IMG/VR virus record: IMGVR_UViG_3300035034_002688
Source: an uncultured virus (IMG/VR IMGVR_UViG_3300035034_002688)
Lineage: Duplodnaviria > Heunggongvirae > Uroviricota > Caudoviricetes
Direction: 5' to 3' (one strand)
DNA length: 64,000 nt
Made by a program: the position numbers and the translations under genes. Shown here one piece after another: positions 36,497 through 64,000 of the stretch. Position 1 is the first letter of the stretch. Each line of letters opens with the position of its first letter. The notes beneath the pieces were generated by a model. The model had not been told where the DNA came from. It searched no databases and worked only from the letters and a program-made list of their open reading frames with translations.

Positions 36497-36636
36497 TTGA
36501 CACGTCCGGCCCGTTGAGGTTACCGTAATGAAGTCTGGAGCGGTGAGGAGCGGTGACGGTCTTTGTCACTGGACCCTGAAAGTCTTTGAAAACTGAATAC
36601 TTACGTGATTTCACCCATGTGACTTCTTGTCGCAGA
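36497..36636 (+). promoter_or_regulatory. Promoter and leader of CRISPR array 1
   Basis: TTGACA-N18-TACCGT (36497-36526), then a relatively AT-rich non-coding stretch up to the first repeat. Confidence 0.55.
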
Positions 36637-37283
36637 CCCCTCCCCGTGTACGCGGGGATGTCCCGTGCCTACCCTTGTCTACGAACGGGGCGCGGCCCCC
36701 CTCCCCGTGTACGCGGGGATGTCCCCCTTCGACGGTCACGACGACCATCGACACCAACCCCCTCCCCGTGTACGCGGGGATGTCCCCTACAACCTGGGCT
36801 CGGCTCGCTCCAGGCAAGCCCCCTCCCCGTGTACGCGGGGATGTCCCCACCCACATCACGACCTCGAAGGACTCGTTGGTCCCCTCCCCGTGTACGCGGG
36901 GATGTCCCCATGGCGTCTGTCATGGGCAACAGGATGGACTTCCCCTCCCCGTGTACGCGGGGATGTCCCCGGGTACGTGAGCGCCTTGGCGGAACCCTTC
37001 CCCGTGTACGCGGGGATGTTCCCCGTGTACGCGGGGATGTTCCCCATTACAGGGCGGCACACCCTAGGTTCATAACCCCTTCCCCGTACACGCGGGGATG
37101 TTCCCCAGACACCCCAGATCCACCTTGGCGTCCAGACCCCTTCCCCGTACACGCGGGGATGTTCCCCTCACACCGAACGAGCGAACGCCAATGTGCCCTT
37201 CCCCGTACACGCGGGGATGTTCCCACCATGCCTTTTTGGACATGCACTGATTGTCGCTTCCCCGTATACGCGGGGATGTTCCT
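36637..37283 (+). CRISPR. CRISPR array 1, type I-E-like, 12 repeat units and 10 spacers, no adjacent cas genes
   Basis: 29-nt repeats CCCCTCCCCGTGTACGCGGGGATGTCCCC at 36637, 36698, 36759, 36820, 36881, 36942 (61-bp period), then CCCTTCCCCGT(GT/AC)ACGCGGGGATGTTCCC at 36995, 37016 (overlapping), 37077, 37138, 37196 and degenerate 37255. Confidence 0.97.
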
Positions 37284-37335
37284 GTTCCTGTTCCGTCTCG
37301 TTCTCCTCTCTATTGCCGTGGCAAAGGAGCCTGAT

Positions 37336-37662
37336 ATGAAGATCATGACCTTGAGTGCAGAGTCGCTTCGCGAGTCCATGAGTCCGCGTGATTACTTCAG
37401 AGAGACCGGGTGCTTTACGGACACCAAAGACGCCCTGGATCAGGTGCTCAGGGGTGTGAGAGGGCTGACCTCGATGGCCGAAGCCTTCGAGCGTGAGACG
37501 CATCAAGAAGCTTGGCGGAGAGGCGACGCCGAACAGCACGTTTCTGCTTTGGTCGTGGAGTCTCAGCGTGTCTACACTGTCGCTCGATTGCTTCAGAGAA
37601 GCGTGAGGGCGACTCCCTTGCACTATGGCACCACGCTGCAAGAAGGCGCGCGCGAGGGATGA
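37336..37662 (+). CDS. Hypothetical helical protein (108 aa) downstream of array 1
   Basis: AAGGAG RBS, ATG 37336 (MKIMTLSAES...). Confidence 0.6.
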   Translation: MKIMTLSAESLRESMSPRDYFRETGCFTDTKDALDQVLRGVRGLTSMAEAFERETHQEAWRRGDAEQHVSALVVESQRVYTVARLLQRSVRATPLHYGTTLQEGAREG

Positions 37663-37670
37663 AGCCTCCT

Positions 37671-40600
37671 TCAGTCCGGATCGAGCAGGAATTCCAGCTC
37701 GTCAAGCAGGGTCGTGGTCTCCTGGAGATCGTCCTGATCCCGTGCGATGCGTGTCTGCTCCACCACATCCAGACCCGTAGCACGTTCGATCTTCTGCGTC
37801 AGGCTGACGCCTCCGATGGCGGAGAGGTCCTCGTCCTTCTCCAGACGTACGGCGACCACCTCCGGATCTTGAGCGGCGACTTGCCCCAGAGCGGTGGAGA
37901 GATCACGTCTCGCGCGGTCCAGCTTCAGGCGGGTATCTTCGGTCGCAGTGCGCGCCTCCGTGCCGAGCACCGATCCTAGCGTCTCTCCTGCGTCCAGGCG
38001 GCGGCGAATGTCCTCACGCCCAAAGATGCCTGTGTTTGCTCGACCCACCGGCTCCAGGTTCACCGTGTCGAGACCTCCAATGACGGGATTGGGAGGGGAG
38101 GTCGCGGGCGGGGTACGGTTCTCACCGCGTAGCTCGCGCTCTCGAATCGCACCCTGTTGGACGTCTCGCTCGTAGAGGTTGAGGAGGAAGCGGTTGAGCG
38201 CGTCGATGATCCCCGGATCACGGGGAGGGGTCAGGCCTTCCGGTAGCGTATTGACTCCGTTCTGGGCGTTGTCGTCGAGAGCTTCCGCGAAGCGGTTCAC
38301 TGAATCCTGCTCGTCTTCAATGACGTCCGGGAGCCCAACCGTGTTGACGCGGTTGGAGGCTTCAAGATCATTCGCCTCGTCACCTTGAAGAATGGCGGCC
38401 TCCGTGACCATGGGCTGCTCGGGCGTGACCACCATGCCGTCAGGTATCGGGAGCAAGGACTCAGCCCAGATCCCGCGCGCGGTCTCCTCATCTCCGATGT
38501 ACCCGTCAAGGTTCCAGGGCTTCTTGTTGGGCTTGTACTGTCGGGGGTACTCGGCTTGCCACTGGGCGATCTCGGCTGCGCTGGGGTTGGTCGCCAGGAA
38601 GCGGTTGTAGAGCGTCAGGCTTCCAGGACCTGCCTTCCAGAGGATGGCGATCTTGGTGGGATCGTTGCCGTGTCGGCCTTTGTACTTTTCGGCGTAGCGT
38701 AGGAAGTGCTCCAGGCTCTGGTCTGGCGCGTTCATGAAGTCGACGTTGGAGGTGTTGGTGCCGTCCCTCTTGTTGAACTCCTTCGCGTTGGTCTTGCCGA
38801 TCTGAACCAACCCGACAAACTGCGAGGGCTTCCCGTTCTTCTGCGTCCGTCTCGCATCGGCCTTACCCGAAGACTCGGTGTGGATGATCGCGAGCACCAA
38901 CTCATCGGGATAGGTCGCTTCGGAGTAGCCCAGCTTTTCGCGCGCCGCGCGGATGTTGGGGCGCCAACGGGCCACGTTCGAGTTGTACTTGAAGACGCGA
39001 CCTCGCGACGACTTTCTCACCGTCTTGTTGTTGACCGTGTACGAGTCCGAAGAGAGTGGGCTGGGCGCAGCGGTCGCCGGCACGGAGGAGGAAGCCCCCT
39101 GTGCGTTGGAGAACTGGAGCTGGGCGGAGAGCACGCGCGCGGCGAGCGTGGGGTCGGCCGAGATGTTGGGAGGTGCAAGCTCTGCGAGTCGTCGCCCGTA
39201 GTTGTTGGGGTCCAGCTTGAGCGCCTTGCCTCCCAGGTCTGCCTCATAGGCCGTGGCGAGGTTGTCGGAGATCTCATTTTCGGCGTTGGGCGTCGTCCTC
39301 CCTGGCTGCCCCAGGTCGTCGGGTGCGAGGTTGAGGAGCAGCTCCACGGCCGTGTTCAAGGGCGTCTGGTCAAAGCGGTAGCCTTGAGGGGTCGCCAGGA
39401 CACGGCGCCCGTACTCATAGGCTCCGATCACCTCATAGCCTCGCTCATCCGAGACCGGGAACACCACCGCGTTGACCGTGGCGGTCTCGGTGGTTCCTTC
39501 TGAGGTGGCCGTGATCTGTAGCTTGGGGTCGGACTCGATGTGAGTCACCGGACCTCGTGAGCGGTTGTTGGCCTCATCGGAGACGTAAGGGGTCTCCCGG
39601 TTCGGGTCAATGAGGTAGACGTAGCGGTTGTCTGTCGTGTTGCCAAACTGTGATCGCAGGTCGACCAAGTTACGCAGGCGGCGGTCCGAGTCAGTGGAGT
39701 CGTCCTCAAACGTGGGCACCACGTCACCGAACCTCTTGAAGTCCTTTTCGGGGAGGTAGGTCATCACCACGTTGCGGTCACCCAGGGGCCGCCCGTTGGG
39801 GTCTGTGGGTCGGGCCCCGATGTTTCTCGGGATGTCACCGGGGAGCGCCAGATCACCGGGCTTGGGCTCGGCCGCCTCGTCACGCCACCGCTCAAAGGCC
39901 CCGTAGAACTTCTGTCTGCGCGCGGAGAGGGTCAGGGACGTGGTACAGCGTGATCCATACCCGAAGCTGTGTGAGATGCCCTCCACGTAGTAGTACGCGT
40001 CCTTGCCCTCCACATAGACCGGGTACCCCAGGCGAAGCTCGGGTCGAAACGGGATCGTGACCGTGCCGCTGTTGATGCGCGCGTTCTGCTGATCCAGGAT
40101 GTCGACGAGGTGGTAGAAGAGCGCCTTGGGCCCTCCGTTCTCCTTGGACCCAATGAACTCGGAGCTGAACGCTCCTGGACGCCATCCGTACTTCTGGACG
40201 AGCCTGTAGTCGACGTACGTAGCCTTGGTCTGTGCCAGGGAGGAGAGCCCGACCTCGACGTTCTGTGTGTAGCGTCCCGTGGCCTCCACGAAGGTCGCTT
40301 CCGGAGGGTTCTCCGAAAAGTTCCAGGAGATCACGTCAACGTCTCGAATCCAACTCACGGGGAAATTCAGCCGGGTGTCCATGTTGAAGAACGGAGGCTT
40401 GAAGATGATCTCCCCCGTGACGTCCATGTAGAACTCGTAGTTGATCGCCTCCTTGGTCTGCAAGGCGAGGTTGAGCTTGTTCTCGAACTCACTGTTCTCG
40501 ATCTCTACCGCACCGAGCTGACTCAGCTTCTGGCTGAAGGGGGCGATGGCGCTCACGTCGAAGAAGTCCTGCTTGAAGGGCTCGTAGTCCTTGAGCTTGG

Positions 40601-41399
40601 TAGCCTTGGCGGACCCCTTGCGCTGGCGAAGGAAGAAGTCTCGGTTCTCGCCCGAGAGCACGCTCGCGAGCTGGCCACCCTGGAGGACGTTCCCGGAGGG
40701 GCCATACATCTTGATGTTCTGCGTGATCCGACCCCACTTGGCGCTCCAGTAGGCCATCATCCTCTTGGTGTCCGCTCCCGAGATCGGCTCGGTACGGGCT
40801 TCGCGGTTTGGGACCGACTGATTACGCACGTTCATCGAGTCCCCATACACGTAGCGTGAGAGGCTGTAGATGATGTCGAAGGCGTTCATGCCCGTGAACG
40901 TGTGTCCTCGCAGGTTGACCTGTTGGGTCTGGTCCTTCAAGGTCGCCAGATACGACGGGTTGATGTTGATCTGCGAGACCTGCCACCAGTACAGGATGTC
41001 CGAACAGCTCAAGCTGACCGTCTGCTCGCCGGCCGAGTAGCTCTCCTGCAAGCTCGTGACGACGCCCCAGAAGATCGGGTAGTACCGTGGCGATCCGCCC
41101 ACCGAGAAGTGACCCTTGGCGTAGATCTGGACCTCCATCATCGTGGTCAACGTGAGCTGACCCCCCACATAGATGTCACCCAGGTAATGTGCCGGGATGT
41201 GCAGGTCAATGGAGGCGCTGCCGGGCACCGAGTTGACCCCCAGGTTGACCGAGATCGTGTTGATCAACGGCTGCAAAGGCACGCGTCGGTTCGGGTTGGC
41301 TCCGCTTGGGAGGCTCAGCTCTCCGTTGATGTAGACCAGACAGTCTGGCGCCGTGGTGACGACGGGGCGGCGGTTTGGCTTGTAGGTCCCTTGGTACAC
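37671..41399 (-). CDS. Baseplate hub-like protein with SLT lytic transglycosylase domain (1242 aa)
   Basis: N-half gp27/GPD-like (PIFWGVV, YEFYMD..GEIIFKPPF, VTIPFRPELRLGYPV...YYYVEGISHSF); SLT motifs LAIIHTESSG, GLVQI, WKAGPG. Confidence 0.8.
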   Translation of the reverse strand: MYQGTYKPNRRPVVTTAPDCLVYINGELSLPSGANPNRRVPLQPLINTISVNLGVNSVPGSASIDLHIPAHYLGDIYVGGQLTLTTMMEVQIYAKGHFSVGGSPRYYPIFWGVVTSLQESYSAGEQTVSLSCSDILYWWQVSQININPSYLATLKDQTQQVNLRGHTFTGMNAFDIIYSLSRYVYGDSMNVRNQSVPNREARTEPISGADTKRMMAYWSAKWGRITQNIKMYGPSGNVLQGGQLASVLSGENRDFFLRQRKGSAKATKLKDYEPFKQDFFDVSAIAPFSQKLSQLGAVEIENSEFENKLNLALQTKEAINYEFYMDVTGEIIFKPPFFNMDTRLNFPVSWIRDVDVISWNFSENPPEATFVEATGRYTQNVEVGLSSLAQTKATYVDYRLVQKYGWRPGAFSSEFIGSKENGGPKALFYHLVDILDQQNARINSGTVTIPFRPELRLGYPVYVEGKDAYYYVEGISHSFGYGSRCTTSLTLSARRQKFYGAFERWRDEAAEPKPGDLALPGDIPRNIGARPTDPNGRPLGDRNVVMTYLPEKDFKRFGDVVPTFEDDSTDSDRRLRNLVDLRSQFGNTTDNRYVYLIDPNRETPYVSDEANNRSRGPVTHIESDPKLQITATSEGTTETATVNAVVFPVSDERGYEVIGAYEYGRRVLATPQGYRFDQTPLNTAVELLLNLAPDDLGQPGRTTPNAENEISDNLATAYEADLGGKALKLDPNNYGRRLAELAPPNISADPTLAARVLSAQLQFSNAQGASSSVPATAAPSPLSSDSYTVNNKTVRKSSRGRVFKYNSNVARWRPNIRAAREKLGYSEATYPDELVLAIIHTESSGKADARRTQKNGKPSQFVGLVQIGKTNAKEFNKRDGTNTSNVDFMNAPDQSLEHFLRYAEKYKGRHGNDPTKIAILWKAGPGSLTLYNRFLATNPSAAEIAQWQAEYPRQYKPNKKPWNLDGYIGDEETARGIWAESLLPIPDGMVVTPEQPMVTEAAILQGDEANDLEASNRVNTVGLPDVIEDEQDSVNRFAEALDDNAQNGVNTLPEGLTPPRDPGIIDALNRFLLNLYERDVQQGAIRERELRGENRTPPATSPPNPVIGGLDTVNLEPVGRANTGIFGREDIRRRLDAGETLGSVLGTEARTATEDTRLKLDRARRDLSTALGQVAAQDPEVVAVRLEKDEDLSAIGGVSLTQKIERATGLDVVEQTRIARDQDDLQETTTLLDELEFLLDPD

Positions 41400-41457: not shown

Positions 41458-41487
41458 TTGACACTCACGTTGCAGTTGCAGTATACC
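41458..41487 (+). promoter_or_regulatory. Sigma70-like promoter upstream of the duplicated CRISPR leader
   Basis: TTGACA-N18-TATACC. Confidence 0.55.
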
Positions 41488-41508
41488 TTGAGACGTCAAG
41501 TGGGCGCG

Positions 41509-41647
41509 GTACCACAGAGTAAGAGTTGGTAAAGTAAAACGGCGAACCTCATGCTAACAGGATTCCCCTTATGAATCAAGGAGTTAGGTACACTTCCGAA
41601 GGCTTGAACATTTGAAGAGTGTTCCCCGCGCGAGCGGGGAAGTTCCT
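41509..41647 (+). CRISPR. Duplicated array-2 leader plus a solitary type I-E repeat
   Basis: 41583-41630 is identical over 48 nt to the reverse complement of the array-2 leader/repeat junction; 41526-41542 is identical to revcomp 62482-62498; single repeat GTGTTCCCCGCGCGAGCGGGGAAGTTCCT at 41619-41647; IHF consensus match AATCAAGGAGTTA at 41574-41586. Confidence 0.9.
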
Positions 41648-47994: not shown

Positions 47995-48531
47995 ATGAGC
48001 GATTACACACTACCCCCTACCCATGACTTGAGGTACCCCTTCTTGCGTGAGGATAGTGGTGGGGACTACGCCAAGTACAACAACATCCCCTACATCTGGC
48101 CGTTTGGCGGGTATGAGCACTCGTACCCCTACGACACGATGCCCATGCCCCCCTCTACGGCCCCCCCGTTTACGCTCCCTCCCCAGAACATGGCGCCCCC
48201 GATCGTGTCCACCTCTCTCGTGGCGCATACGCTCTACGACCTCCGCATCGTGTGGCATGATGCGGAGAGCGCGTACCTGCAATGCGAGTACGCGATGGCC
48301 ATGCTTGGCGGTGACGATGTGCGACGCGTTCTGCTCGTGCCCATAGCCGAGGTAGGGCTTGTTGATGGGTCGCTAGCCGACCTTACCTTCAGGGCTCAAG
48401 ACCGTACGTACTGGTTCACGCGTCCCGAGGAGTCCTACCGATATCAGTATGAGATGGACCGTGAGGGTGGAGAGCCGATCAACCTCGCGTTGTTGCTGTA
48501 CTCGCTCCGAGACGCGTGGGCACAGCAGTGA
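47995..48531 (+). CDS. Hypothetical protein
   Basis: GAGG RBS, ATG 47995. Confidence 0.55.
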   Translation: MSDYTLPPTHDLRYPFLREDSGGDYAKYNNIPYIWPFGGYEHSYPYDTMPMPPSTAPPFTLPPQNMAPPIVSTSLVAHTLYDLRIVWHDAESAYLQCEYAMAMLGGDDVRRVLLVPIAEVGLVDGSLADLTFRAQDRTYWFTRPEESYRYQYEMDREGGEPINLALLLYSLRDAWAQQ

Positions 48532-49019: not shown

Positions 49020-49336
49020 GCCTCAAGAACATCACCACCGAGACTCACGACCAGCACGTCTTCTCGGACGACCTCAAGCGCGTTGTCGTCCTGGACTTCT
49101 ACGCCGACTGGTGCGGCCCCTGTAAGGGGATCATGCCTCAGGTCGAGAAGATGGCACAGGACCGCAACGCCTCCTTCTTCAAGGTCGACACGGACAAGGA
49201 GAACGAGTTGGCCTCGGAGTACGGCATCAAGAGCCTCCCCACGTTCATCGTGATCCAGGGTGGGGAGGTGGTCGAGTATTGCATCGGCGCCAACCTCGAC
49301 AAGCTCAACGAGGTCCTTGACGGCCTGGGTGCTTGA
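49016..49336 (+). CDS. trxA: Thioredoxin
   Basis: DFYADWCGPCK active site; FKVDTD; YGIKSLPT. Confidence 0.95.
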   Translation: MSLKNITTETHDQHVFSDDLKRVVVLDFYADWCGPCKGIMPQVEKMAQDRNASFFKVDTDKENELASEYGIKSLPTFIVIQGGEVVEYCIGANLDKLNEVLDGLGA

Positions 49337-55800: not shown

Positions 55801-56635
55801 TCGCCGCTACAGCGTGGAGATGGAAGACTACCGCGAGGAGCTGGCACGTCAGCGGGTGATCTATGAGGACAACGCCAACGCGCCGGCTGACATCATTGGC
55901 TTCCTCACGGCGACGTCTTCCAACCCCGCCACGCCCTTGAAAGAGCGGCTGGACGCTCTTGACGCCCTCCTGTTGCCGGCTCCTTTCCTTACGCTTACCG
56001 GCGTGGCGGAGACGGGCGCGCAGACCTTGACCGGTGGCGTGGACTTCGTGGTGGAGGGGGTGGAGACGGGAGACCTCGTGCGCGTGGACGCGGGTATCAA
56101 TCGAGGCTTCTACTTCGTCACTGGAGTCTCCAGCGCAGCGATCACCCTGGACGGCTCGAACCCTTACGTCACCTACACGCTGAGCAACGACGGCGCTACG
56201 GACTACACGGTCACCAAGGCGGAGGGGTTCCAGGACCTCACGTACCAGCTCGTGCTCTCGGAGATCTACGGACTTGACCAACGCATCGAGCGTCTGGACG
56301 CGGGTATCCGAGGGGTCGACACGGACACGGACGACCTTCTGGGAGTGCTTCCGTACGGTAGCCTGACAGGAGACTACACCGACGACACCCTCACGGCCCA
56401 CCAGACGCAAGCTCAGGCGAGGTTGGACCGTCTACAGGTGGTTCCCACGCTTGCTCAGGACATCGAAGGCATCTTGAAGGGGTCTGAGGCCCTGTATGAT
56501 ACGCGGTATGCCTGGGTAGACTATCGCGCGAACCTTGAAACAGGTACCCTGCCAAGAATCCGTCGATACCTTGCTACGGTAGACAAAGAGAAGGAGCGAC
56601 GCTTGAGGGAACTCACTCGCGCCGGTTCAACTTGA
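49802..56635 (+). CDS. Very large virion structural protein, probably baseplate wedge-like (2277 aa)
   Basis: Uninterrupted 6.8-kb ORF; beta-rich acidic composition; within the baseplate region. Confidence 0.65.
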   Translation: MTGDFNGWVLRKPRVAASNANTTAEPDVVVREQDEAAYRASYLDNVSATGSEYLVRTAQTGDLVVPSSITEIASPFDGSLPTALVFTFNTQGRAVAAPVLPADVTPLPDSVDTSAGLITYLVAPGVAPTVTFVPAPLSVEYTRNDSGRTRFGYDARVSRWETLPGGSPESLGLVPETGLLTLPLVEADAAGAPAPPRVLLGNPDRLLGTLVDVTQLLGEDAFADYRDGILDPASGEGALNVETGELRLAPSLTVGFEAQEAFFTRRNFFAFDASTGRVGIIGEDLLLNPLPLVGEEPLLRVGYGSYLNASVGAGSPVGSEQARVDPLTGRVNLSAALEAQSEGLALYYDGVLTGTATPQAPTVLGDLLSNQSGLSNVDLLEYEPEALVLYIEQTGEAVRELEFVADPSDFTEARNLPPTKAQVARSDGSVRLSQRFVSANLSRDLVAGSTDLTLERGLTFRMGRSPLDPTNAAGLPDGQGVLRLEDELLGPVRSGPSAFLTQVPLVDVAGYAADTFYRLGSGAQRRVLVPDEEVIYDFDTRQLLWAQRRTTSQTISQRTFSVRVPDQVLLNRNYSFELNRGSGFEALEDGVNASVDFDIGEIRFTQTQGEVLIEDVATVAGQEFTFLTEDLSGVVISLVDLDRPLLRTGLNAYTITGIAGSVVTVEGDVQESGSVAVEIISAPEPVYAYALAQVNLNPDIVAAFLVREVDSSGTVYAPGTTGEVYAVSGGVRRDVVRLASTVLGEAQDALTLPAFAQGAEAVFEIYLGSDLLVEVGGTPNQGEYRIMGVDLVLSSADVLANPKELVTLDPSLSTARATGDVELLVATRELGFPLDLAVVDLYVQVEARIQDRLLYFSQPFAAGDRLRARYRTADEVEVEEEVGFRVVEDAVIVSATEATYGAGRLLDPNRAPIILVNGARTDLPVDPVAGTINTSSVRTGRTISVSYAALDAKGGEQTASLLQTPVSPDVVFAPGTSQTLRGDQTDDLFLGAFVQAGSTSFTVASVPTYDGTQTTFEVEPSLPQEVRNPITLVSGTVFDFEVLPTLAFDAPVQGSTTLRVFSDVTGLLKAQRVLVLDSDAYYVTDVTFDGGQTVLSLASPLARAYSSPLASQSVFTVYGPGAQVLLTEKTGLDGGLVEVIRRAANGDLTVVDPSTYLFEPAGRLTLDPTLTAPLSRGEVVFLRYTALDPVGPTTLGGQLFLPRFRGTYTQRVNASETNGYLGSNLYVSATLRAPDTFYFRVLPLAEWSEEVAQGLTTSSGTGPVVSSFATTPLSDQGIQTLVGEGGDLYDTDRAARRYLSFYNDLVTAFENVQEVLDGRVIGDRDGKFRFTVRADSTPGGEDPITGRLLPYYINPANPGVRPTSVQIGDTGDLTLQTGLVQNNLDDILLTSKRPFSLNILGFTIDYTGTFKRAWEPSRLSRLYPEESTVQTITVPPLGGGGSYTFGDDGGQILADSGVTGVLAIKGIRPRGSAATVTKVTPGDPLVLSCAQTYDPITGDLSNAPYDLTTGDPSRARPPFEVGSRVDIGRVVFSRNGEDVTRTEVLVARDLVVDSVTASTLELVEGAGTAIGSVNTRAGDTVYEATPLDLPGVADLASLDPADMPFYRNPLDVTLDGATGEVINPTLPGFFATLLGQKVPPPGTLLDLTVSYQNTNTSPRRPPALDGGAANDDGDLSVPFVSPMPDSELSRLPAELAAITTLLSNTEPGVYVSAATRLSATTLSTSLDLTGLGVGVQGFTLLEGSPVVYSSSEVPGPNVLTLAAFEYEDLTAPFEVPDLFAGSGTVAGAVLTDAGTDFTAFSGATITLNIDGGASYPVSVLSNGSLTATGVIAETGAQSYTLSASGVGSISTDLTTLEAPGVDFTSASGPFTVARPFNGGLSPITFLVGEGSDGSLVPDLIPSGFNGPLAVGPLVPVASGTAQVSVTNVLSTLDSLASVAPGDTLIIASSSPNAGRYRVGAVGATTLTLDVGADASIWNTFFWDNEGGGITYPVDYTVVRPRRYSVEMEDYREELARQRVIYEDNANAPADIIGFLTATSSNPATPLKERLDALDALLLPAPFLTLTGVAETGAQTLTGGVDFVVEGVETGDLVRVDAGINRGFYFVTGVSSAAITLDGSNPYVTYTLSNDGATDYTVTKAEGFQDLTYQLVLSEIYGLDQRIERLDAGIRGVDTDTDDLLGVLPYGSLTGDYTDDTLTAHQTQAQARLDRLQVVPTLAQDIEGILKGSEALYDTRYAWVDYRANLETGTLPRIRRYLATVDKEKERRLRELTRAGST

Positions 56636-56652
56636 ATCCAAAGGTAGTTCTG

Positions 56653-56832
56653 ATGGAAGATAGGCGCACCTGGGTAAGCCAGGACATCAAGCGATCACAG
56701 ACCCTACGTGATCGCCTCAAGGAGATCCGGGAAGGCCTCTCGGATCTCAGGGACCAGCTAAGGCGAACACCTGATGATCGACATGACACTGGAGATGGGG
56801 CCGACGCCTCTACGGCAAGACCCCTGGAATGA
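56653..56832 (+). CDS. Small coiled-coil protein
   Basis: LRDRLKEIREGLSDLRDQL heptads; overlaps the next ORF. Confidence 0.35.
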   Translation: MEDRRTWVSQDIKRSQTLRDRLKEIREGLSDLRDQLRRTPDDRHDTGDGADASTARPLE

Positions 56833-57007
56833 TTATTACGAGCGCCTCGGTGAGCTGGCCTGCAAGCTCGACCTGGACGAAGATGAGGAGGGGGAGTACC
56901 GCACCCTCTCAGCGCTTCTGAAGGTACACATGGAGCTGATGGCCGAGAGCGCGGTCCCGGAGACTGGATCAGTCGAAGCCCTGAAGGGCCGGTACGGAGT
57001 GTCTTGA
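56774..57007 (+). CDS. Small acidic hypothetical protein
   Basis: Stop abuts the start of 57008..59239. Confidence 0.5.
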   Translation: MIDMTLEMGPTPLRQDPWNDYYERLGELACKLDLDEDEEGEYRTLSALLKVHMELMAESAVPETGSVEALKGRYGVS

Positions 57008-59239
57008 ATGGCAGATTGGCAGAATCTGGAGGTAGACCTCTCGGGGGTACAGGCGGGGGTTGATGGTACACAGGCGGTCTCGGACGCGGTGAGTGCCGTG
57101 GGGCAGATTGCGTCGGCTTTGCTTGGCCTGTTGCGGACCTTCACCGTCCCTTCCTTGCCCAATCCCATCGCCGGCGCAACCATGTTGCTGATCGCACAGC
57201 TTGAGGACCTCCTGGAGAGCCTGGGAGATACCGGAGCGTTTGGGCTCTTCCTGTTGCCCACGACTCTGGACGACCTCGCAGACAGCGCTGGTGGGTACGC
57301 ACGCTTCGAGCAGCGCGTGGTAGCGTCCTTCTACGACACGGCGGACGCCGAGCGTCCTCAGGTGGGCCAAGCAGGTACGCTGGGCGGGCTAGTGATCTAC
57401 GTCAACGCTCCCAGTCCGGCCGGCATCATCGAGAAGGCCTTGGCCCTGGCGAGGCTCTTTGGCCAGCGTCCGGAGGTGTCTTACCCCTCCCCCATAAGCC
57501 TTCGAGCTACCCCCGCGTCAGACCTCGGCGTGGCCATCCCCGGCGTGATCGACATCTACACGCAAGGCATCGACCCGCCCACCACGATCCTGCTGGAGTG
57601 GGAGGAGCCCAAGAGCACGCAGAACATCTTCTTCGACCTATTCGCGGCCAACAAGTTCTACATCGAACGCTCCCGATCACGGGAAGGCAAGCGCCTCACC
57701 GTGACTCAACCCTCTACCATTCAGATCGACCCTCTCGCGCGTCGCCGTAACGCGCCACCGGAGTATCGCGAGCCCGTGCTCGATGAGAAAGGCGCCGTGA
57801 CGACCGTGTGGGAGCCCCTCGACCCCTCCAACCCGTTCCTCGACGCAGACGACGCAGACGAGGGAGAAGGCCGCCTCGGAGCCAACTTCCTCGCGGGAAC
57901 CTACTCGACCGTCTTGCGCGGCCTCACTCCGGGACAGGATGAGGGGTATTACTACCGTATCCGGAGTGTCCCCGAGAACACCGTGTTGGCGAGCCGACCG
58001 GTCGAGACGACTGATGCCGGGGGCGTGACCGCACAAGAGATCGCGTATGAGTTGAAGCTGGACGGCAAGCCTTATCAGGGCTCTCCCCCCTCGTCTCCCG
58101 TCTATGGATTCATCCCGGAGATCCCCAAACAGACGGGGGGCGCAGCGTTCGACCTCCCCACGGCCCTGCTCAACGTCTACCGCGCCGCGTACCTGCTACG
58201 CTTTGACACCACGGTCTTTGACGACAGCTCTCAGCCCTTGACGGGCTCGGGTATCCTCAACCCGATCACGCCACAGACGATCCTTGACCTCCCCCCGGAC
58301 GACTTCGACTTTGACGGTACGGGCTCAGTCTCGGCGGCGTTCGAGTCGCAGTCTCCAGGTGGCTTTCGATCCACCGAAGACGGCGTGCGGTACTTCTCGG
58401 GTGAGTTCTTTCCGGAGGTGTTCTTTGAGCAGGGACCTCCAGGCTACGCAGACTCGAAGCGGAACGTGGCAACGCTGGGGGCGATCACGTCGTCGTCAGC
58501 TCTGGAAGATGACCCGTTCGCAGGAGCGCGTGAGCTGTTTGCGGCCAAGCTCGGCCTTACCGTTCGGGAGCGGTATCGCCTGTATGTGGACGAGGTGGCC
58601 ACAGATAAGATCGAACGGATACTACCCCTCATCGCACGCAACGAGACGCTCCTGGGGGCTATACGGACATCCTACGTTGGATTCGAGGCGGACCTTCTGG
58701 AACTCCTCACGGGATTCACGACAGACTTCACGCTGATCGAGCGTGAGGACCTGCGAATCGCCGTGGCGAGCCTGATGGTCCTCTTTGATGGGCAGATTCG
58801 CCCCGGTCAGCCTCCCAACTGGAGATCTGTCCGGCTCTTCAAGGACGTTCTGCCTGAGGTTGATCGCGTGGGCGCGGAGCTTCTGGCTGCCATACAGAGC
58901 ATCGAGCTGGCGACCGCCGACGTGAGCACACGCCTTGACGCGACAGTGGAGGGCTTGCAGAACCGTTTGGCCGCGCTCGACGCGGTAGTAGACGCCCTTG
59001 ATGAGATCATTTCGTTCCTGGATGCGGTCTCCGGGACGGCGCTCACGGCTTCGATCCTATTCATCCCGCCTCAGACTGGAGGCGCTCCTGCGTTCGTGAA
59101 CGAGGTCCTCGCGGCACAGGACAAGCCCACGAGCGAGCCCACCGACTACGGCGGAGGTTTCGTGCTCGCAGCCGGAGGGGCGGGTCCTGGGGACGGCGCC
59201 GCGCTCTTTGATGCGCTACGGTTCGTCTTCGGCTTCTAG
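57008..59239 (+). CDS. Putative baseplate-region structural protein (743 aa)
   Basis: Long ORF; FnIII-like motifs (LLEWEEP, FYIERS, GLTPG...YYYRIRSV); helical termini. Confidence 0.6.
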   Translation: MADWQNLEVDLSGVQAGVDGTQAVSDAVSAVGQIASALLGLLRTFTVPSLPNPIAGATMLLIAQLEDLLESLGDTGAFGLFLLPTTLDDLADSAGGYARFEQRVVASFYDTADAERPQVGQAGTLGGLVIYVNAPSPAGIIEKALALARLFGQRPEVSYPSPISLRATPASDLGVAIPGVIDIYTQGIDPPTTILLEWEEPKSTQNIFFDLFAANKFYIERSRSREGKRLTVTQPSTIQIDPLARRRNAPPEYREPVLDEKGAVTTVWEPLDPSNPFLDADDADEGEGRLGANFLAGTYSTVLRGLTPGQDEGYYYRIRSVPENTVLASRPVETTDAGGVTAQEIAYELKLDGKPYQGSPPSSPVYGFIPEIPKQTGGAAFDLPTALLNVYRAAYLLRFDTTVFDDSSQPLTGSGILNPITPQTILDLPPDDFDFDGTGSVSAAFESQSPGGFRSTEDGVRYFSGEFFPEVFFEQGPPGYADSKRNVATLGAITSSSALEDDPFAGARELFAAKLGLTVRERYRLYVDEVATDKIERILPLIARNETLLGAIRTSYVGFEADLLELLTGFTTDFTLIEREDLRIAVASLMVLFDGQIRPGQPPNWRSVRLFKDVLPEVDRVGAELLAAIQSIELATADVSTRLDATVEGLQNRLAALDAVVDALDEIISFLDAVSGTALTASILFIPPQTGGAPAFVNEVLAAQDKPTSEPTDYGGGFVLAAGGAGPGDGAALFDALRFVFGF

Positions 59240-59578
59240 TTTCGGCGTTGGGAAGATGAGAGCGTCTTTCAGGATCTCCTGGATCTCCCGATCGCACCGT
59301 CGTATCCGAATCTCCAGCTCTCGGAACTGTATCATGAGCTGCCAGAACTCCGAGAGGTTGCGGTCCTTCACGGCAACAGGCATCCCCGACAGTCGAATCT
59401 TCAGGTGTTCCGTGCCTCGCTCGACGAGCAGGCAAGGGGTAAATCTAACAACCTCGGCGCCCCAAACAATGTAACTTTTGCGGGTGTTTATGACCCGGAC
59501 GCCATATGGCGTCAGGTTCAGGGTGACGCCTTCCCCCAGAAGGTCCTGGAGGCGTCTGAGGGTTTCCGTGTCGCTCAT
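59216..59578 (-). CDS. Hypothetical protein
   Basis: ATG 59578 in ATGA overlap with 59575..59832. Confidence 0.55.
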   Translation of the reverse strand: MSDTETLRRLQDLLGEGVTLNLTPYGVRVINTRKSYIVWGAEVVRFTPCLLVERGTEHLKIRLSGMPVAVKDRNLSEFWQLMIQFRELEIRIRRCDREIQEILKDALIFPTPKLEAEDEP

Positions 59579-59832
59579 GACTCCGGGAGGTTGTCCAGCT
59601 CCTCCTGGAGCAGGTCTCGCGCCCACTGCGGCACCGTCTTGCGGTACGAGTCACCACCCGTAAGCAGGGTCAGCGTGAGGGCGTCTCCCGAAGGCGCCTC
59701 ACCCTTGCGCACTCCCCAGAAGAGGGCGCTGTAGGCATCGCCACCGGGAGCGCACGCGGTGGGTGCGCCCTTGGCGAGCTTTCGGAGCGCGACGCGGTGT
59801 GCTTCAGGGTTCGAGCTGGCATGAAATCCCAT
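59575..59832 (-). CDS. Hypothetical protein (85 aa)
   Basis: AGAGGA RBS. Confidence 0.55.
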   Translation of the reverse strand: MGFHASSNPEAHRVALRKLAKGAPTACAPGGDAYSALFWGVRKGEAPSGDALTLTLLTGGDSYRKTVPQWARDLLQEELDNLPES

Positions 59833-59959
59833 GATGTGTTCCTCTTAGCGTTGTGTGTATGTAGGAGAGTCTACGCGTTACGTGGGGCGGACACTTAGCG
59901 CTGGACCACGTGCCAGACCCGTGGGCGCGTCTGCTTGTGACTGTAGGTGTTTGTCGAGG

Positions 59960-60097
59960 TCAGTGAGGACAGGCGGCCCCCAGGGTGCGACACCACTTAC
60001 CGCTCAAGAGCTTGACGAAGTGGAATTTCTTGGCCCAGCTCTCGTGGTAGTCCAGGCGGGTGGTGCTGCGCGCGTGGTTGAGCGTGTTGAACGTCAT
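59960..60097 (-). CDS. Small hypothetical protein (45 aa)
   Basis: GGAG RBS; MTFNTLNHAR...AACPH; not in track. Confidence 0.4.
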   Translation of the reverse strand: MTFNTLNHARSTTRLDYHESWAKKFHFVKLLSGKWCRTLGAACPH

Positions 60098-60139
60098 GGT
60101 CTTGTCTCCGTGTCTGAATGTTCGTGGTGCGGGAAGCTC

Positions 60140-60406
60140 TCAGCGGTAGCGGATGAAGTTCTCCGCCTCTTCGTGGAAGGACTGCCAGCGCTCCTCCATA
60201 TGCTCCTCTTCCAGCTCTTTATCGCAGTGGCGGCAGTGGTCTCGCCACTCCTGGAGACAGTGCACCGAGTCTTCCGGGCTCAAGCCCTTGACCGACTCAA
60301 GGATCTCTTCCTTGCTCTTGGGTGCCTCGTCCGGGTCGAAGCTGTTGAGCAGCTCAAGGGCGAGCTGCTTGAACTGGAAGCGAAGCTCCTGAATCGAGTT
60401 GTCCAT
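60140..60406 (-). CDS. Small acidic hypothetical protein (88 aa)
   Basis: CAGGAG RBS, ATG 60406, promoter upstream. Confidence 0.65.
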   Translation of the reverse strand: MDNSIQELRFQFKQLALELLNSFDPDEAPKSKEEILESVKGLSPEDSVHCLQEWRDHCRHCDKELEEEHMEERWQSFHEEAENFIRYR

Positions 60407-60447
60407 GTCGTCGTCTCCTGCGGTGTGTCGTTTCGTCTTACACACCC

Positions 60448-60476
60448 TATATACCACAAGGAGGGGGGGTCGTAAA
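60448..60476 (-). promoter_or_regulatory. Sigma70-like promoter (shared family)
   Basis: TTTACG-N17-TATATA with TGTGG before the -10. Confidence 0.75.
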
Positions 60477-60478
60477 AA

Positions 60479-61151
60479 CTATTCGACAGGTTCCACGCGA
60501 CGGCGGTACTGGACTCCTCGGCGGTACTTCCCCCTTAAAGCCTTCAAGGGTGTGAGATCTTGGATGTGGTTGTAATCCAGGGATATCCATCCCGCCTTCA
60601 CCATGCTTGCGAGAGGCTCCACGTCGTCGATGTGGTTCCCCCCAAGGTCGAGTTCCACCATCTCTACCATTCCCGCAAGGGGCGATACGTCCTCTATTTT
60701 ATTGTCCGAGAGCGTCAGGTATTCAAGCTTGGTCAGCCCTGTGATCGGGCGGGAGATCTTCGATGGCATTTCTGTCCAGGGACGGATGCAGCATTCCGAC
60801 CATCTGCGCGATAGGGGTGAGGTCTTTGATGTTCAGCTCCATCGCCTCCAACTCGACGACGTTCGTGAGGCCATGCAGCCGCGCGAAGTCCTCGGCTTCG
60901 TAGAGCGCCAAATCTGTTGTGATCTTGGGGCACAGCTCCTGGAGTTCAAAGGCGCGCTCGACCTTGCTGTGACATAAAACGGGTCTGGAGACCTTGAAGT
61001 CGAGTCCCATGACGTAGGGGAGCACCTGATCCGCGTAACGCGTCGGGTCCTCTTCCCTCATGCGGTACAGGATGTGGTACAAGTGCGGTGCCTCCACCGG
61101 GTTCCCGGAGTGCAGGAGGCTACGGAGGTCGTGAAAAGCTTCGGCTTGCAG
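60479..61151 (-). pseudogene. Internalin-type leucine-rich repeat gene split by a frameshift
   Basis: LRR register (NIKDLTPIAQM, NAIEDL / PITGLTKLEYLTLSDNKIEDVSPL, NHIDDVEPL) continues across two frames near 60750; CTG lies where a start is expected. Confidence 0.7.
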
Positions 61152-61164
61152 GGTTCGTCTCGCG

Positions 61165-61563
61165 TCAGGTGTGTGTGGCGGCAAGATGAGCAAGGAAGGC
61201 TTCCACCTTGAACGGTGTGAACGTTCCGGGACCGTCCCAGTCGTCCTCAACATGTAGGTCCAAGTGCGGGCGGCCTTTGCATCGGAACGAGTAGCCCTTG
61301 TGTCCTGAGTTCGTGCGCTCAATCTCAAGACGCCAGCCCTCCTCTAGCCAGACAGCGATGGCGCCGCCCTCCAAAGATAGTGTCAGCACGTAGGGGTCAC
61401 CCAGATGTGCTTGGAAGGCGTCCACGTCGCAAAAGAAGGCATCGAGGGCATCCGAAGAGGGCTCGGGCCAGTCTTCCTCATCCTCCCACCGATAGCTCAA
61501 GATCGTCATGAGGTCGGACGTGGTGTCCTGCGCTCGTGTTTTATCCCAAAAATCCCAAAACAC
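61165..61563 (-). CDS. Hypothetical protein (132 aa)
   Basis: AAGGAG RBS before GTG. Confidence 0.6.
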   Translation of the reverse strand: MFWDFWDKTRAQDTTSDLMTILSYRWEDEEDWPEPSSDALDAFFCDVDAFQAHLGDPYVLTLSLEGGAIAVWLEEGWRLEIERTNSGHKGYSFRCKGRPHLDLHVEDDWDGPGTFTPFKVEAFLAHLAATHT

Positions 61564-61618
61564 ACGCTCTCCTTGGGTAGTGTAAGGTGGCGAGCGTACC
61601 TTGAGATGTGGGAACCTG

Positions 61619-61813
61619 TCAAGCGGGGTCTACGGGCTGGTCGCACACATCACACTTCTCGGTGTTGTGGGGGCCGGTATCTCCCCACACCACGTTCCCG
61701 TGGTTGACGGCACATGCCATACAGCGGAGGTACCCCAGGTTGTCAACGACGCCGACGGCGCCTTGTTTGTAGAGCTTCTCCCGGTCTTCCTTCTCAATGC
61801 GCTTTGCGTTCAT
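61619..61813 (-). CDS. Small zinc-finger protein (64 aa)
   Basis: CMAC...CDVC; GAGGAG RBS; promoter upstream. Confidence 0.65.
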   Translation of the reverse strand: MNAKRIEKEDREKLYKQGAVGVVDNLGYLRCMACAVNHGNVVWGDTGPHNTEKCDVCDQPVDPA

Positions 61814-61853
61814 GGCTCGTCTCCTCTCGTGGCGTGTTGTTCCTTACACACAT

Positions 61854-61882
61854 CATATACCATAGGAAGCCTGGAGCGTAAA
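61854..61882 (-). promoter_or_regulatory. Sigma70-like promoter (shared family)
   Basis: TTTACG-N17-TATATG with TGG before the -10. Confidence 0.65.
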
Positions 61883-61949
61883 AACTATCTCAGTCTTCGA
61901 GGCTTCGAATGCCCACGGTCTGGTAGGTCTCAAAGCCCACAACCTCTTC

Positions 61950-62405
61950 TGGGACATCCCCGCGTGCGCGGGGAACACGCTCCCCTTCGATACAGAGATC
62001 TTCTTTCTACCGGGACATCCCCGCGCACGCGGGGAACACGGGTAGAACAAGAAGATGTATGAGAGGGGATCCGGGACATCCCCGCGCACGCGGGGAACAC
62101 CGGACGAGCATGGGGAGACGTATTCGCCCTACCGGGACATCCCCGCGCACGCGGGGAACACTTGAAGCTGGAAGGATGCACGAGATGTGCGTGCGGGACA
62201 TCCCCGCGCACGCGGGGAACACACAGGTGTGATCACAAGAGCATGTCGCCTCATCGGGACATCCCCGCGCACGCGGGGAACACGTCAAAGCTGGTCACCT
62301 TTGGAGCGTGAACGGCGGGACATCCCCGCGCACGCGGGGAACACCATGACACCGACACACCCGCACTTGGTGCATCCGGGACATCCCCGCGCACGCGGGG
62401 AACAC
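61950..62405 (-). CRISPR. CRISPR array 2, type I-E, 8 repeats and 7 spacers of 32 nt
   Basis: Repeat GTGTTCCCCGCGTGCGCGGGGATGTCCCG (minus strand) at plus-strand starts 61950 (variant, terminal), 62011, 62072, 62133, 62194, 62255, 62316, 62377; exact 61-bp period. Confidence 0.98.
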
Positions 62406-62515
62406 TCTTCAAATGTTCAAGCCTTCGGAAGTGTACCTAACCCCCTGTATTCGCTCAGGAATTCTGTTGGCATGGGGTACACCGTTTTACTTTACCAAAT
62501 CGTACCCTGCGGTAC
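62406..62515 (-). promoter_or_regulatory. Leader of CRISPR array 2
   Basis: AT-richer non-coding stretch between the cas gene stop and the first repeat; homologous to 41509-41618. Confidence 0.85.
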
Positions 62516-62524
62516 AAGCCTGAA

Positions 62525-64000
62525 TCAGGAGGCCTTCTTGGTGGGGGCGCGGTAGTAGGTGCGCGTCCACTCCATCTGCGTCTGAGAGCCCCAGGTGAGG
62601 AGGCTCAGGATGAGGTCGTTGGCGTCGGCACCCTGACCCTCAATGCGTCCGAGGACGTTGCGGAGCTGGCGCCAGTGGCCGTTCAAGGTGCCTCCCGAAC
62701 ACAGGCGCTCGAACGAGCGCTCCTTGATGTCACGAGACTGCGCGAGGACGCGCGCGACGGGGCGGTTGCCCTTGAAGCCGGTGGGCTTGAGGCCCGCGAG
62801 CAGGACCGCCAGGAGGAACACGCGCTCCTGCAACTCGGGGGCGTTCTCACCAAGGTTACGCTCCACCACCTTCTCCAGGGCCTTCTCCAGCAGGATGGCG
62901 GGGCGCATGTAGCGTACGTCCTGGAGGTTCTTGGCGCGAGAGAGCGCGACGCGGCCGGAGCCCTTGTCGTGGTGGAGGTTGCGCCACCACTTGTGGACCA
63001 CGGAGAGGATCTCATCCTTGTGGGCGTATACGATGTTGTTCATGGGGTTCTTCTCTCTCTTGGTGGAGGTGCCGCAGAGTTTGAGGAGCTGCTTTTCGAG
63101 CCCGGCTCGTTCCCTCACGGCGGATGTGATGGTGCGGGTGTTCATGCGCGATTTGCGAGTGACACGGCCTCCAACGAGGGAGTCGAAGATCGTGAGCGCG
63201 GTGGTCGCGAGGAGGCGCTTGTAGGGCGTATAGACCATCTCCTCAAGCTCCTCCCGGTTGGTCGTGAGCTTGACCTTGGCGAGCGCGTCGTATGCAGCCT
63301 GTTCGGTGTGTGACCACAGCTCGGAGTTGTTCCGGCCTCCCAGGCAGGCGACCTTCGCGCGGAGCACCTTATCCACCTCGGACGTGAGCTTGACCAGCGC
63401 CCCGAAGGTGTCCTCATCACGCAGAGCCTGTGAGCCCTCGAAGATGAAGATGTACTTCTCGAAGAAGCTCACCGTCTTGCCCGCAAACATGTTGAATCCG
63501 AAGACACGCAGCGGGGGAAGCCCTCCCCATACCTCATCCCAATGCTCCGCGACCTCATCGTACAGGAAGGCCTTGCGCTTGGTGTGGGTGATGATTGGGG
63601 GCGTGTGGAGGGTCTCGGAGTAGGCGTGGGAACCCAGAACGTTCCACGTGCGCCTGTTGGTGACGGTCTGCACAGCGCGGACATCTTTCACATCTTTGGG
63701 GGTCCACTTGCCGTTGACGCCCATCGTCTTGAGGTTCTTGAGGGTGGTGGCGTTGTTGGGGAGCTGCCAGACACCCGACATGGGGATGCACTGACGAGAC
63801 CCCGGCAGACCTTCCCACTTCTCGGACTGCGCTGTGTAGCGCTGCCGGTTGCCCCAGGGCTGCGCATCCACGTAGTCCAGGAGCCCGTCCTCATCCGGCT
63901 CCGGCAGGACCCACTCACGCGTGAGGTGCCAGAACGCGGTCAAGGGGTGGTAGTCCAGGTCGTGAGCGCGCCACCCCTCGATCTGACTCTCTTCGACCCA
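62525..64000 (-). CDS. Cas8e (Cse1)-Cas11 (Cse2) fusion protein, 5' end beyond the window
   Basis: Frame is open to 64000. Cse1-like motifs HPLTAFWHLTREWVL, LRVFGFNM..K, LWSHTEQAAYDAL, ALTIFD. Last 172 aa are Cse2-like (WWRNL...GRVALSRA...SFERL...QLRNVL...LLTWG...EWTRTYY). Adjacent to a I-E array. Confidence 0.8.
   Translation of the reverse strand, partial: WVEESQIEGWRAHDLDYHPLTAFWHLTREWVLPEPDEDGLLDYVDAQPWGNRQRYTAQSEKWEGLPGSRQCIPMSGVWQLPNNATTLKNLKTMGVNGKWTPKDVKDVRAVQTVTNRRTWNVLGSHAYSETLHTPPIITHTKRKAFLYDEVAEHWDEVWGGLPPLRVFGFNMFAGKTVSFFEKYIFIFEGSQALRDEDTFGALVKLTSEVDKVLRAKVACLGGRNNSELWSHTEQAAYDALAKVKLTTNREELEEMVYTPYKRLLATTALTIFDSLVGGRVTRKSRMNTRTITSAVRERAGLEKQLLKLCGTSTKREKNPMNNIVYAHKDEILSVVHKWWRNLHHDKGSGRVALSRAKNLQDVRYMRPAILLEKALEKVVERNLGENAPELQERVFLLAVLLAGLKPTGFKGNRPVARVLAQSRDIKERSFERLCSGGTLNGHWRQLRNVLGRIEGQGADANDLILSLLTWGSQTQMEWTRTYYRAPTKKAS

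Follow-up and report, generated by a model that had tools for sequence, protein, structure and literature searches.

The 64,000-nucleotide (nt) stretch of an uncultured virus of the class Caudoviricetes recorded in IMG/VR as IMGVR_UViG_3300035034_002688, hereafter the window, contains three elements built from the repeats of a type I-E-like CRISPR system, and its end cuts through a core CRISPR-Cas locus of which only the last 1.5 kb falls inside the window. Searching for the repeat core TCCCCGYRYRCGCGGGGA with at most two mismatches gave 21 sites (42 strand-wise matches), where 100 shuffles of the window averaged 0.17 matches and never exceeded 3. These sites fall into three groups, with 12 at 36641–37276, one at 41623–41640, and eight at 61957–62401, and they correspond to the 12-repeat array, the leader with a single repeat, and the 8-repeat array that a preliminary description of the window had proposed. 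Across these elements the I-E-type hairpin repeats are 29 nt, the spacers are 32 nt, and there are two leader types; repeat spacing in the two arrays, A1 and A2, is 61 nt, and together these hold 17 spacer-like intervals, the number given in that description.

Array A1 (36637–37283) is read on the plus strand and has 12 repeats of 29 nt with spacers mostly of 32 nt. Its repeat, CCCCTCCCCGTGTACGCGGGGATGTCCCC, drifts to CCCTT...GTACAC/GTATAC...GTTCC: the six leader-proximal repeats are alike except in the last base, G in the first and C in the other five, those farther from the leader are degenerate, and at 36995–37044 a pair of repeats is fused without an intervening spacer. The leader of A1, of type A (36497–36636, plus strand), has TTGACA at 36497–36502 and TACCGT at 36521–36526, separated by an 18-nt gap, and a conserved block of about 60 nt that adjoins the first repeat. 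The second element is a copy of leader type B (41458–41618, plus strand), with TTGACA at 41458–41463, an 18-nt gap, and TATACC upstream of the copy, followed on the same strand by the solitary repeat GTGTTCCCCGCGCGAGCGGGGAAGTTCCT at 41619–41647. This repeat resembles the phage's own class-B repeat, although its handle part reads AAGTTCCT as against ATGTCCCG in the array consensus, and it lies 40 nt 5' of the first ATG (41688) of a plus-strand gene run that extends to about 46425. Array A2 (61950–62405) is read on the minus strand and has eight repeats (repeat GTGTTCCCCGCGTGCGCGGGGATGTCCCG; seven identical and one terminal variant) and seven spacers of 32 nt; its leader, of type B (62406–62524, minus strand), fills the interval from the cas8e::cas11 stop codon to the first A2 repeat. 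The leader of the solitary repeat is a copy of that of A2 (85.8% identity over 134 nt), and the A1 leader is unrelated to this shared type, which bears out the proposal of two unrelated leaders. There are more repeat loop variants than the three proposed alongside: GTAC, ACAC, and ATAC in A1, GCGA in the solitary repeat, and GTGC and GCAC in A2. A GTTCCT microsatellite follows the terminal or degenerate repeats of A1 (37277–37295) and of a further array, A4 (stretch L003, about 156–185), and caused spurious matches to many unrelated phages.

The open reading frame (ORF) at 62525–64000 on the minus strand is the 3' part of cas8e::cas11 (residues 245–735 of 735), the last gene of an operon that continues past the window end. 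PADLOC detected Cas11e in the C-terminus of this ORF (E = 4.6e-9), the sole Cas signal among the 60 window ORFs, and a Pfam scan of the window found no Cas family. Using an exact 52-nt search, we found the continuation of the window in IMG/VR contig IMGVR_UViG_3300012271_000005 (G002, 125,429 bp), one stretch of which (L001) is 99.98% identical to window 53949–64000 and extends past it; over the roughly 50 kb that they have in common, the window and G002 differ by seven mismatches. Within the 8 kb past base 64000 lie the rest of Cas8e::Cas11, then Cas5e, Cas6e, Cas7e, and a full Cas3, giving the minus-strand operon order cas3-cas7e-cas6e-cas5e-cas8e::cas11. The whole core locus, read on that strand, comprises leader A, array A3, two small ORFs, cas3, cas7e, a repeat-like and a terminator-like hairpin, cas6e, cas5e, cas8e::cas11, leader B, and array A2.

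This arrangement bears directly on the statement in the preliminary description that only Cas8e-Cas11 is recognizable, which holds for the window and fails just beyond it. The impression that no nuclease is encoded is an artefact of the window edge, because an intact cas3 sits past base 64000. The model built on that impression, in which the phage has arrays and Cas8e-Cas11 only and borrows Cas5, Cas6, Cas7, and Cas3 from its host, draws on the single Cas signal seen within the window, but with cas5e, cas6e, cas7e, and cas3 lying directly 5' of the cut ORF in a 99.98%-identical contig, and an identical Cas7e recorded on a contig of 373,477 bp, it is now extremely improbable.

The full-length cas8e::cas11 gene (L001:8577–10784, minus strand) encodes a protein of 735 aa with Cse1 and Cse2 domains. 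Residues 4–500 match Pfam Cse1 PF09481 at 67.6 bits (cut-off 24.7) and PADLOC Cas8e at E = 7e-21, and residues 579–729 match NCBIfam Cse2 TIGR02548 at 38 bits (cut-off 28.5), with a PADLOC Cas11e match of the full-length protein at E = 1e-8; Cas11e is the C-terminal domain of the fusion and has no separate gene. Cas7e, Cas5e, and Cas6e match TIGR01869 (182.1 bits, cut-off 178.05), TIGR01868 (142.1 bits, cut-off 68.95), and TIGR01907 (73.7 bits, cut-off 45.2), respectively, as well as Pfam PF09344, PF09704, and PF08798; the true start of cas6e is at L001 12332 and its product has 243 aa. Cas3, with 876 aa, matches PADLOC Cas3e (E = 3e-140) and Pfam Cas3_HD (96.6 bits) and Cas3-like_C_2 (92.2 bits), and it aligns with the solved chain 4q2c at E = 2e-52, with H..HD, GAGKTE, and DEVH present in the alignment. 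The two small ORFs 5' of cas3 encode a 122-aa zinc-ribbon protein and a 97-aa protein without a family match, and array A3 with its own leader lies directly 5' of them. Between cas7e and cas6e (L001 12350–12400, minus strand) there is a repeat-like hairpin with the CCCCGC/GCGGGG stem of the CRISPR repeat, followed by a second hairpin and a U-run that the scan calls terminator-like; we infer that this structure attenuates the genes downstream of cas7e, Cascade needing several copies of Cas7e.

In canonical I-E systems the gene order is cas3-cas8-cas11-cas7-cas5-cas6-cas1-cas2. Like those of E. coli, Thermus, and Thermobifida, the system described here has the six protein families (Cas8e, Cas11e, Cas7e, Cas5e, Cas6e, and a Cas3 with HD and SF2 helicase domains) and 29-nt hairpin repeats, with a 7-bp stem and a tetraloop, separated by spacers of about 32 nt, typically exactly 32 nt. 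It differs in its order, cas3-cas7-cas6-cas5-cas8::cas11, in the fusion of Cas8e with Cas11e, in having no adjacent cas1-cas2 module that we could find, in proteins that are 26–39% identical to the bacterial ones, and in a Cas7e that is about 80–100 residues longer. A complete conventional I-E operon, which the preliminary description had named as the finding that would contradict it, is therefore present in part: the interference module is complete, whereas its order is unconventional and it comes without cas1-cas2.

The carrier of these loci is a lake-water jumbo myophage with a genome of about 366–373 kb. A chimeric contig, the other possibility raised in the preliminary description, is not what we found, as three independent assemblies are collinear across the region. 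A metagenome contig of 365,960 bp holds all arrays, and of ten loci taken from it seven align full-length at 99.93–100% to G002 or to a second IMG/VR contig, G008 (127,707 bp), the other three lying in parts absent there. G008 encodes a major head protein (2e-50), portal (1e-27), large terminase (2e-27), tail sheath (2e-29), and head protease, along with GroEL, topoisomerase II, UvsX, clamp loader, and ribonucleotide reductase, and G002 encodes DNA polymerase, primase, a DnaB-type helicase, and PhoH. With contigs of 365,960 and 373,477 bp and these virion hallmark genes, the genome belongs among the huge or jumbo phages (>200 kb). An origin of the arrays in a bacterial chromosome, a plasmid, a provirus flank, or a chimeric contig would suit the IMG/VR label of G008, "provirus", and the GroEL, ribonucleotide reductase, and topoisomerase-like genes on that contig, but it is scarcely credible given that the head, portal, terminase, protease, and sheath genes stand on the same contig and that all arrays lie on a single 365,960-bp contig collinear with two IMG/VR contigs. 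There is, moreover, no tRNA gene in the seven loci of G002 (window 13868–64000 onward) and no Rfam match at gathering thresholds, to rRNA, tRNA, or anything else, in the window and five G002 loci; most window ORFs have no Pfam family, and the guanine-plus-cytosine (GC) content is uniform at 0.60–0.61. Nothing that we saw supports the provirus label.

The elements of the window belong to a larger set. G002 carries further arrays A3, A4, and A5; the loci of G008 are a 9-repeat array, a unit of leader A and one repeat just 5' of a gene, and a 2-repeat leader-B mini-array; and the 365,960-bp contig adds three loci, A8 and A9 in tandem and A10. This brings the genome to 12 CRISPR loci, or 13 counting an extra leader-repeat unit 5' of A3, and the count is a lower bound (at least 12). 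In an alignment of seven leader-A copies, six keep TTGACA, the 18-nt gap, GGTTACC(G/A)TAA, and the roughly 60 nt beside the first repeat, with variable sequence between the blocks, and among the leader-B copies (solitary repeat, A2, and A7) the last 100 nt or so are conserved and the last 45 nt identical. A promoter scan called the A3 and A4 leader copies promoter-like (10/12). The repeat hairpin is conserved: of the 112 pair cells given by 16 different variants of the repeat, 99.1% are paired, with one compensatory change from GC to AU. A3 ends in a repeat with a U-rich tail, which the scan calls terminator-like, and by eye the degenerate terminal repeat of A10 also carries a U-run. Outside the window, the metagenome contig stretch L115 (about 1570–2100) has a leader-A array of three repeats and a leader-B mini-array of two repeats in tandem; the sole spacer of this mini-array encodes the DEAH-box helicase motif VIICDEAHYL and has no exact match in IMG/VR.

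The arrays hold 52 spacers of 28–34 nt, all unique, with a mean GC content of 0.600 and a length of exactly 32 nt in 43 cases. Within A1, A2, A4, and A6 repeats near the leader are identical to one another and those farther away diverge, which is the pattern of serial integration at the leader end. At repeat position 29 the base is C for 37 spacer units and G for the other 15, with no A or T, and it varies within otherwise identical repeats. In the I-E system of E. coli this last repeat base derives from the protospacer-adjacent motif (PAM), and an apparently PAM-derived last base is a further likeness to canonical I-E. Other features point to duplication or recombination of leader-repeat modules, namely the paralogy of the leader copies (78–93% identity), the tandem leader'-repeat-leader arrangement 5' of A3, the mixture of repeat types within A5 and A10, and the repeat fusion in A1.

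Six-frame searches for Cas1 (PF01867) and Cas2 (PF09707, PF09827) gave nothing in G002 or G008, with control genomes responding, and PADLOC found neither protein among the 60 ORFs of the window or among 15 that surround the operon; these searches cover about 267 kb of the genome (the two IMG/VR contigs plus the window). The arrays nevertheless appear, from the repeat patterns described, to carry the marks of past polarized acquisition of the I-E type. The preliminary description had suggested matching the repeats to bacterial genomes as a way to name the host, and this did not succeed: a search with the repeat pattern in 185,579 species genomes returned 90 loci, none with an identical 29-nt repeat, and the nearest arrays, which differ at three or more positions, belong to Streptomyces, Deinococcus, and relatives of Verrucomicrobia/Lentisphaerae. 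In five of those genomes the best counterparts of the phage Cas7e share 27–36% identity with it, apart from one 49-residue piece at 51%. The relatives of PhoH and DNA polymerase are metagenomic proteins or proteins of an uncultured 485-kb phage.

Two accounts of how the arrays came about have to be weighed. One is adaptation in trans, in which a host I-E Cas1-Cas2 would insert spacers at the phage leaders during infection. The missing Cas1 and Cas2 families, the polarized growth with identical leader-proximal and divergent distal repeats, the restriction of repeat position 29 to C or G (as expected if it derives from the PAM), and the conservation of the leader block beside the repeat in six of seven leader-A copies all agree with it, and there is a precedent in type IV-A3 systems served by host I-E machinery, according to PMC11656645. 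It is rendered rather unlikely by the lack of an identical 29-nt repeat among the 185,579 species representatives and by the absence of any spacer difference between assemblies or runs, and the roughly 100 kb beyond the examined 267 kb could hold cas1-cas2. The other account takes the arrays as frozen heirlooms of an ancestor with cas1-cas2 that later spread by duplication and recombination of leader-repeat modules only. The leader paralogues, the tandem unit 5' of A3, the mosaic repeats of A5 and A10, the spacerless fusion in A1, and the identity of the arrays in all assemblies fit this account, whereas the long identical leader-proximal runs in A1, A2, A4, and A6 fit fairly recent serial acquisition better; we regard it as a tentative possibility that falls short of being probable. 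Low-depth contigs of two other runs are identical to the arrays where they cover the stretch, and apparent joints in contigs of three DNA runs on L001 turned out to be cross-mapping of the paralogous A9 and A4, with no new spacers.

The preliminary description had found no full spacer match inside the window, and for the spacers of A1 and A2 there is indeed none elsewhere in the window. Elsewhere in the phage, over the 267 kb examined, neither a perfect nor a near-perfect match exists for any spacer except A10_4, from array A10 outside the window, which matches L119 817–848 at 28 of 32 positions (best shuffled control, 24 of 32); it is also the only spacer with a peptide-level match to the phage's own genes. 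The site lies within a gene of the phage itself for a 251-aa SLT-domain transglycosylase (Pfam E = 5.7e-11). The mismatches, at spacer positions 3, 7, 8, and 9, are confined to the seed, with identity at the 23 PAM-distal bases. All four are synonymous (Ala GCT/GCG, Ser AGC/TCG), the peptide encoded by spacer and gene alike being AGSVRKHDEN. On the spacer-identical strand the 5' flank of the site is AAC, whose final C is also the base at position 29 of the repeat before the spacer. The apparent PAM, from this single case, is AAC and not the AAG of canonical I-E. The simplest reading is that A10_4 was acquired from the orthologous gene of a close phage relative. The phage's own copy of the transglycosylase gene would be protected because of the seed mismatches. 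Related phages do exist, since a PhoH 75% identical to that of the phage and a Cas8e::Cas11 fusion 31% identical to the present fusion (P0185) both have cluster members on contigs of 437,490 bp.

Two short arrangements in other replicons came to light in these searches. The plasmid pAt1 of Allochromatium tepidum (NZ_AP024564.1, L207) has at 410–437 a solitary I-E repeat beside a terminator-like hairpin, with no array around it. Over 28 nt this repeat matches the first A2 repeat exactly, the last 4 nt of the A2 leader being part of that match. The cultured Saccharomonospora phage PIS 136 (JX006077.1, L114), with a genome of 95 kb, contains an unannotated I-E-type mini-array of four repeats at about 1440–1645.

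Taken together, these data make it probable that the three loci in the window belong to a set of at least 12 CRISPR loci carried by a jumbo myophage that encodes its own type I-E-like interference machinery. That the system is phage-borne, of I-E type, and complete for interference we hold to be very likely, and on whether its main use is against related phages the case is about evenly balanced. The use against competing phages suggested in the preliminary description gains one support, the spacer A10_4 derived from kin, and no other target was found. In the mechanism that we envisage, leader promoters (TTGACA-N18-TAC..T) would transcribe each array, and the phage Cas6e would cut at the hairpin base to give CRISPR RNAs (crRNAs) with the 5' handle AUGU(C/U)CC(C/G). 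A Cascade of Cas7e, Cas5e, Cas6e, and the fused large/small subunit would then find protospacers beside a PAM of AAC/AAG type and recruit the phage Cas3, which would degrade the DNA; related phages that co-infect the same host are the likely targets.

Several results weigh against this reading. An origin could be traced for one of the 52 spacers only, and the array that holds it sits outside the window. BLASTN of six array regions against INPHARED gave repeat-level or low-complexity matches only, exact 23–24-nt stretches of four spacers found in IMG/VR the phage itself or nothing, and PLSDB searched with A1 and A2 returned no target, only repeat similarity between arrays and the solitary repeat of pAt1. 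The arrays are the same in all assemblies and runs seen, with no sign of ongoing acquisition, and the genome sequence seen amounts to about 267 kb of 366–373 kb. As to the proteins, the Cse1 part of the fusion scores 41.6 bits in NCBIfam TIGR02547, under the cut-off of 70.05, and the best listed alignment of Cas6e with a solved structure spans its C-terminal half only. On the side of expression, a generic promoter scan calls neither the A1 leader nor that of the S locus, and no RNA sequencing run was found to contain the stretch.

What the solitary leader-repeat unit in the window does is a separate matter. Candidate roles are those of a promoter cassette, of a decoy, and of a 5' untranslated region (UTR) processed by Cas6e, and the unit may also be what is left of a decayed array. 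One proposal holds that the solitary units (41619–41647, S2, and A3') and the 2-repeat mini-arrays are RNA decoys or regulators and not guides, either as Racr-like repeat mimics that titrate host I-E Cas proteins or as 5' UTR elements, processed by Cas6e, through which expression of the operon downstream would depend on the phage Cas6e. Each solitary unit has a promoter-like TTGACA box and stands a few tens of nt 5' of a co-oriented gene start, the handle of the one in the window departs from the array consensus, a repeat-like hairpin occurs inside the cas operon as well, and RNA anti-CRISPRs made of solitary repeat units are described in the abstract of PMC10651486. A decoy would titrate the Cas6e and Cas7e of the phage too, however, the 32 nt that follow the 13 terminal or solitary repeats match nothing elsewhere in the phage above background (at most 22 of 32), and an array that had decayed to a single repeat would have the same anatomy; the proposal is an unlikely one. 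A broader scenario, equally speculative and improbable, is that of a clade of lake-water jumbo phages (about 370–440 kb) with a deep-branching I-E variant that has a fused Cas8e::Cas11, in which the leader-repeat unit would be a proliferating promoter cassette with more than 12 copies scattered over the genome, full arrays would be loaded in trans by host Cas1-Cas2 against sibling phages, and reduced units would lie in the 5' UTRs of structural operons. If it were true, processing or gating of mRNA by the phage Cas6e at the reduced units would couple virion gene expression to the CRISPR machinery.

The general kind of system is already known. Huge phages (>200 kb) with CRISPR-Cas systems that lack Cas1, Cas2, and Cas4 and have compact arrays, sometimes targeting other phages, are described in PMC7162821 (Al-Shayeb et al. 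2020) and PMC11656645, the former giving a median of six repeats for huge-phage arrays. The system reported here shares with those of PMC7162821 the metagenomic phage of more than 200 kb, the compact arrays, the lack of a detected Cas1 or Cas2, and a proposed role against competitors. It differs in its subtype, the term "type I-E" having no occurrence in PMC7162821, in having a complete interference module with Cas3 where the nuclease is absent or replaced by a helicase in the systems covered there, and in its fused large and small subunits, its at least 12 separate leader-array loci, and its two leader families.

Other mobile systems resemble it in part. The I-F system of Vibrio phage ICP1, as outlined in PMC11656645, is likewise of type I and encoded by a phage, brings its own arrays and Cas3-type nuclease, and serves for attack during infection; ICP1 has its own adaptation module and targets a host defense island, whereas the present system is I-E, has no adaptation genes that we found, and has one traceable spacer, which points to a related phage. 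The anatomy of the unit at 41619–41647 and of the 2-repeat loci recalls the viral mini-arrays and solitary repeat units covered in PMC10651486 and PMC11656645, but those mimic host repeats in phages without cas genes, whereas the repeats of the present phage match its own array beside the cas genes, and Cas6e and Cascade are encoded by the phage itself. Type IV-A3 plasmid systems, as described in PMC11656645, are likewise CRISPR systems of mobile elements without an adaptation module and possibly use host I-E Cas1-Cas2; effector type and vehicle differ, and acquisition in trans is for the present system a hypothesis only.

What is unusual here is the I-E subtype, the rare Cas8e::Cas11 fusion, the non-canonical gene order, and the many dispersed leader-array modules. 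Cas7e-like sequences occur in three of 50,697 deposited phage records, one of the three being a Salmonella contig, and, identical copies aside, the closest Cas7e shares 33% identity. Queries of IMG/VR with Cas7e alone recovered the phage itself only, and with PhoH nothing above 33% identity except the phage itself. A word-indexed search with the fusion protein returned itself only. Against 1.84 billion representative proteins the fusion gave 70 matches, among them two full-length fused relatives and a third that is probably fused. A natural fusion of Cas8e with Cas11 in I-E systems is not described in the literature searched, although a Cell 2022 survey of virus-encoded systems, which lies outside that literature, may cover I-E phage systems. 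A known natural Cse1-Cse2 fusion was not borne out by that literature, which mentions fused small subunits for I-B, I-C, I-D, and I-F only.

The value of the system lies in its combination of a nuclease-complete phage I-E apparatus, a natural fusion joining the large subunit to the small one, and an exceptional number of independently promoted arrays. The synonymous-only seed mismatches of A10_4 would be a signature, at the level of sequence, of warfare between kin phages combined with self-avoidance, and they come with the candidate PAM AAC. The system could inform how CRISPR systems of mobile elements keep their arrays current without adaptation genes and how the architecture of Cascade tolerates a single fused Cas8-Cas11.

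Several further features of the window deserve mention. The genes between the CRISPR elements had been labelled baseplate and tail genes in the preliminary description, a label that goes as far as weak PHROG matches carry it, such as that of ORF 37671–41399 to an SLT domain/baseplate hub (E = 1.2e-5, weak). A co-oriented ORF of 108 aa without a family match (37336–37662, plus strand) begins 53 nt past the last A1 repeat. An element of about 56 nt is repeated at 36407–36462, 60422–60477, and about 61826–61890, the first two copies being 88% identical; on the minus strand it is promoter-like (TTGACG or TTTACG, 17 nt, TATATA/TATATG) with a shared 5' UTR and lies just 5' of minus-strand gene starts, and three of the seven mismatches between the window and G002 (36441, 36449, and 36477) fall in or beside its first copy. 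The 1574-aa ORF 311–5035 (minus strand), which has PHROG matches to tail fibre and virion structural proteins, contains a 441-bp tandem repeat (2.4 copies, 79% matches) at 3229–4276. ORF 16466–16921 (minus strand) is nucleoside 2-deoxyribosyltransferase-like, and ORF 60479–60769 (minus strand) encodes a short leucine-rich-repeat protein. ORF 48516–49336 (plus strand) is DprA/SLOG-like with weak PADLOC matches to PsyrA/ShosA and is directly followed by a thioredoxin gene, and the 200-aa ORF 22127–22729 (plus strand) matches DUF3293 and the S-adenosylmethionine (SAM) lyase family (E = 3.4e-7) and may encode an anti-restriction SAM lyase.

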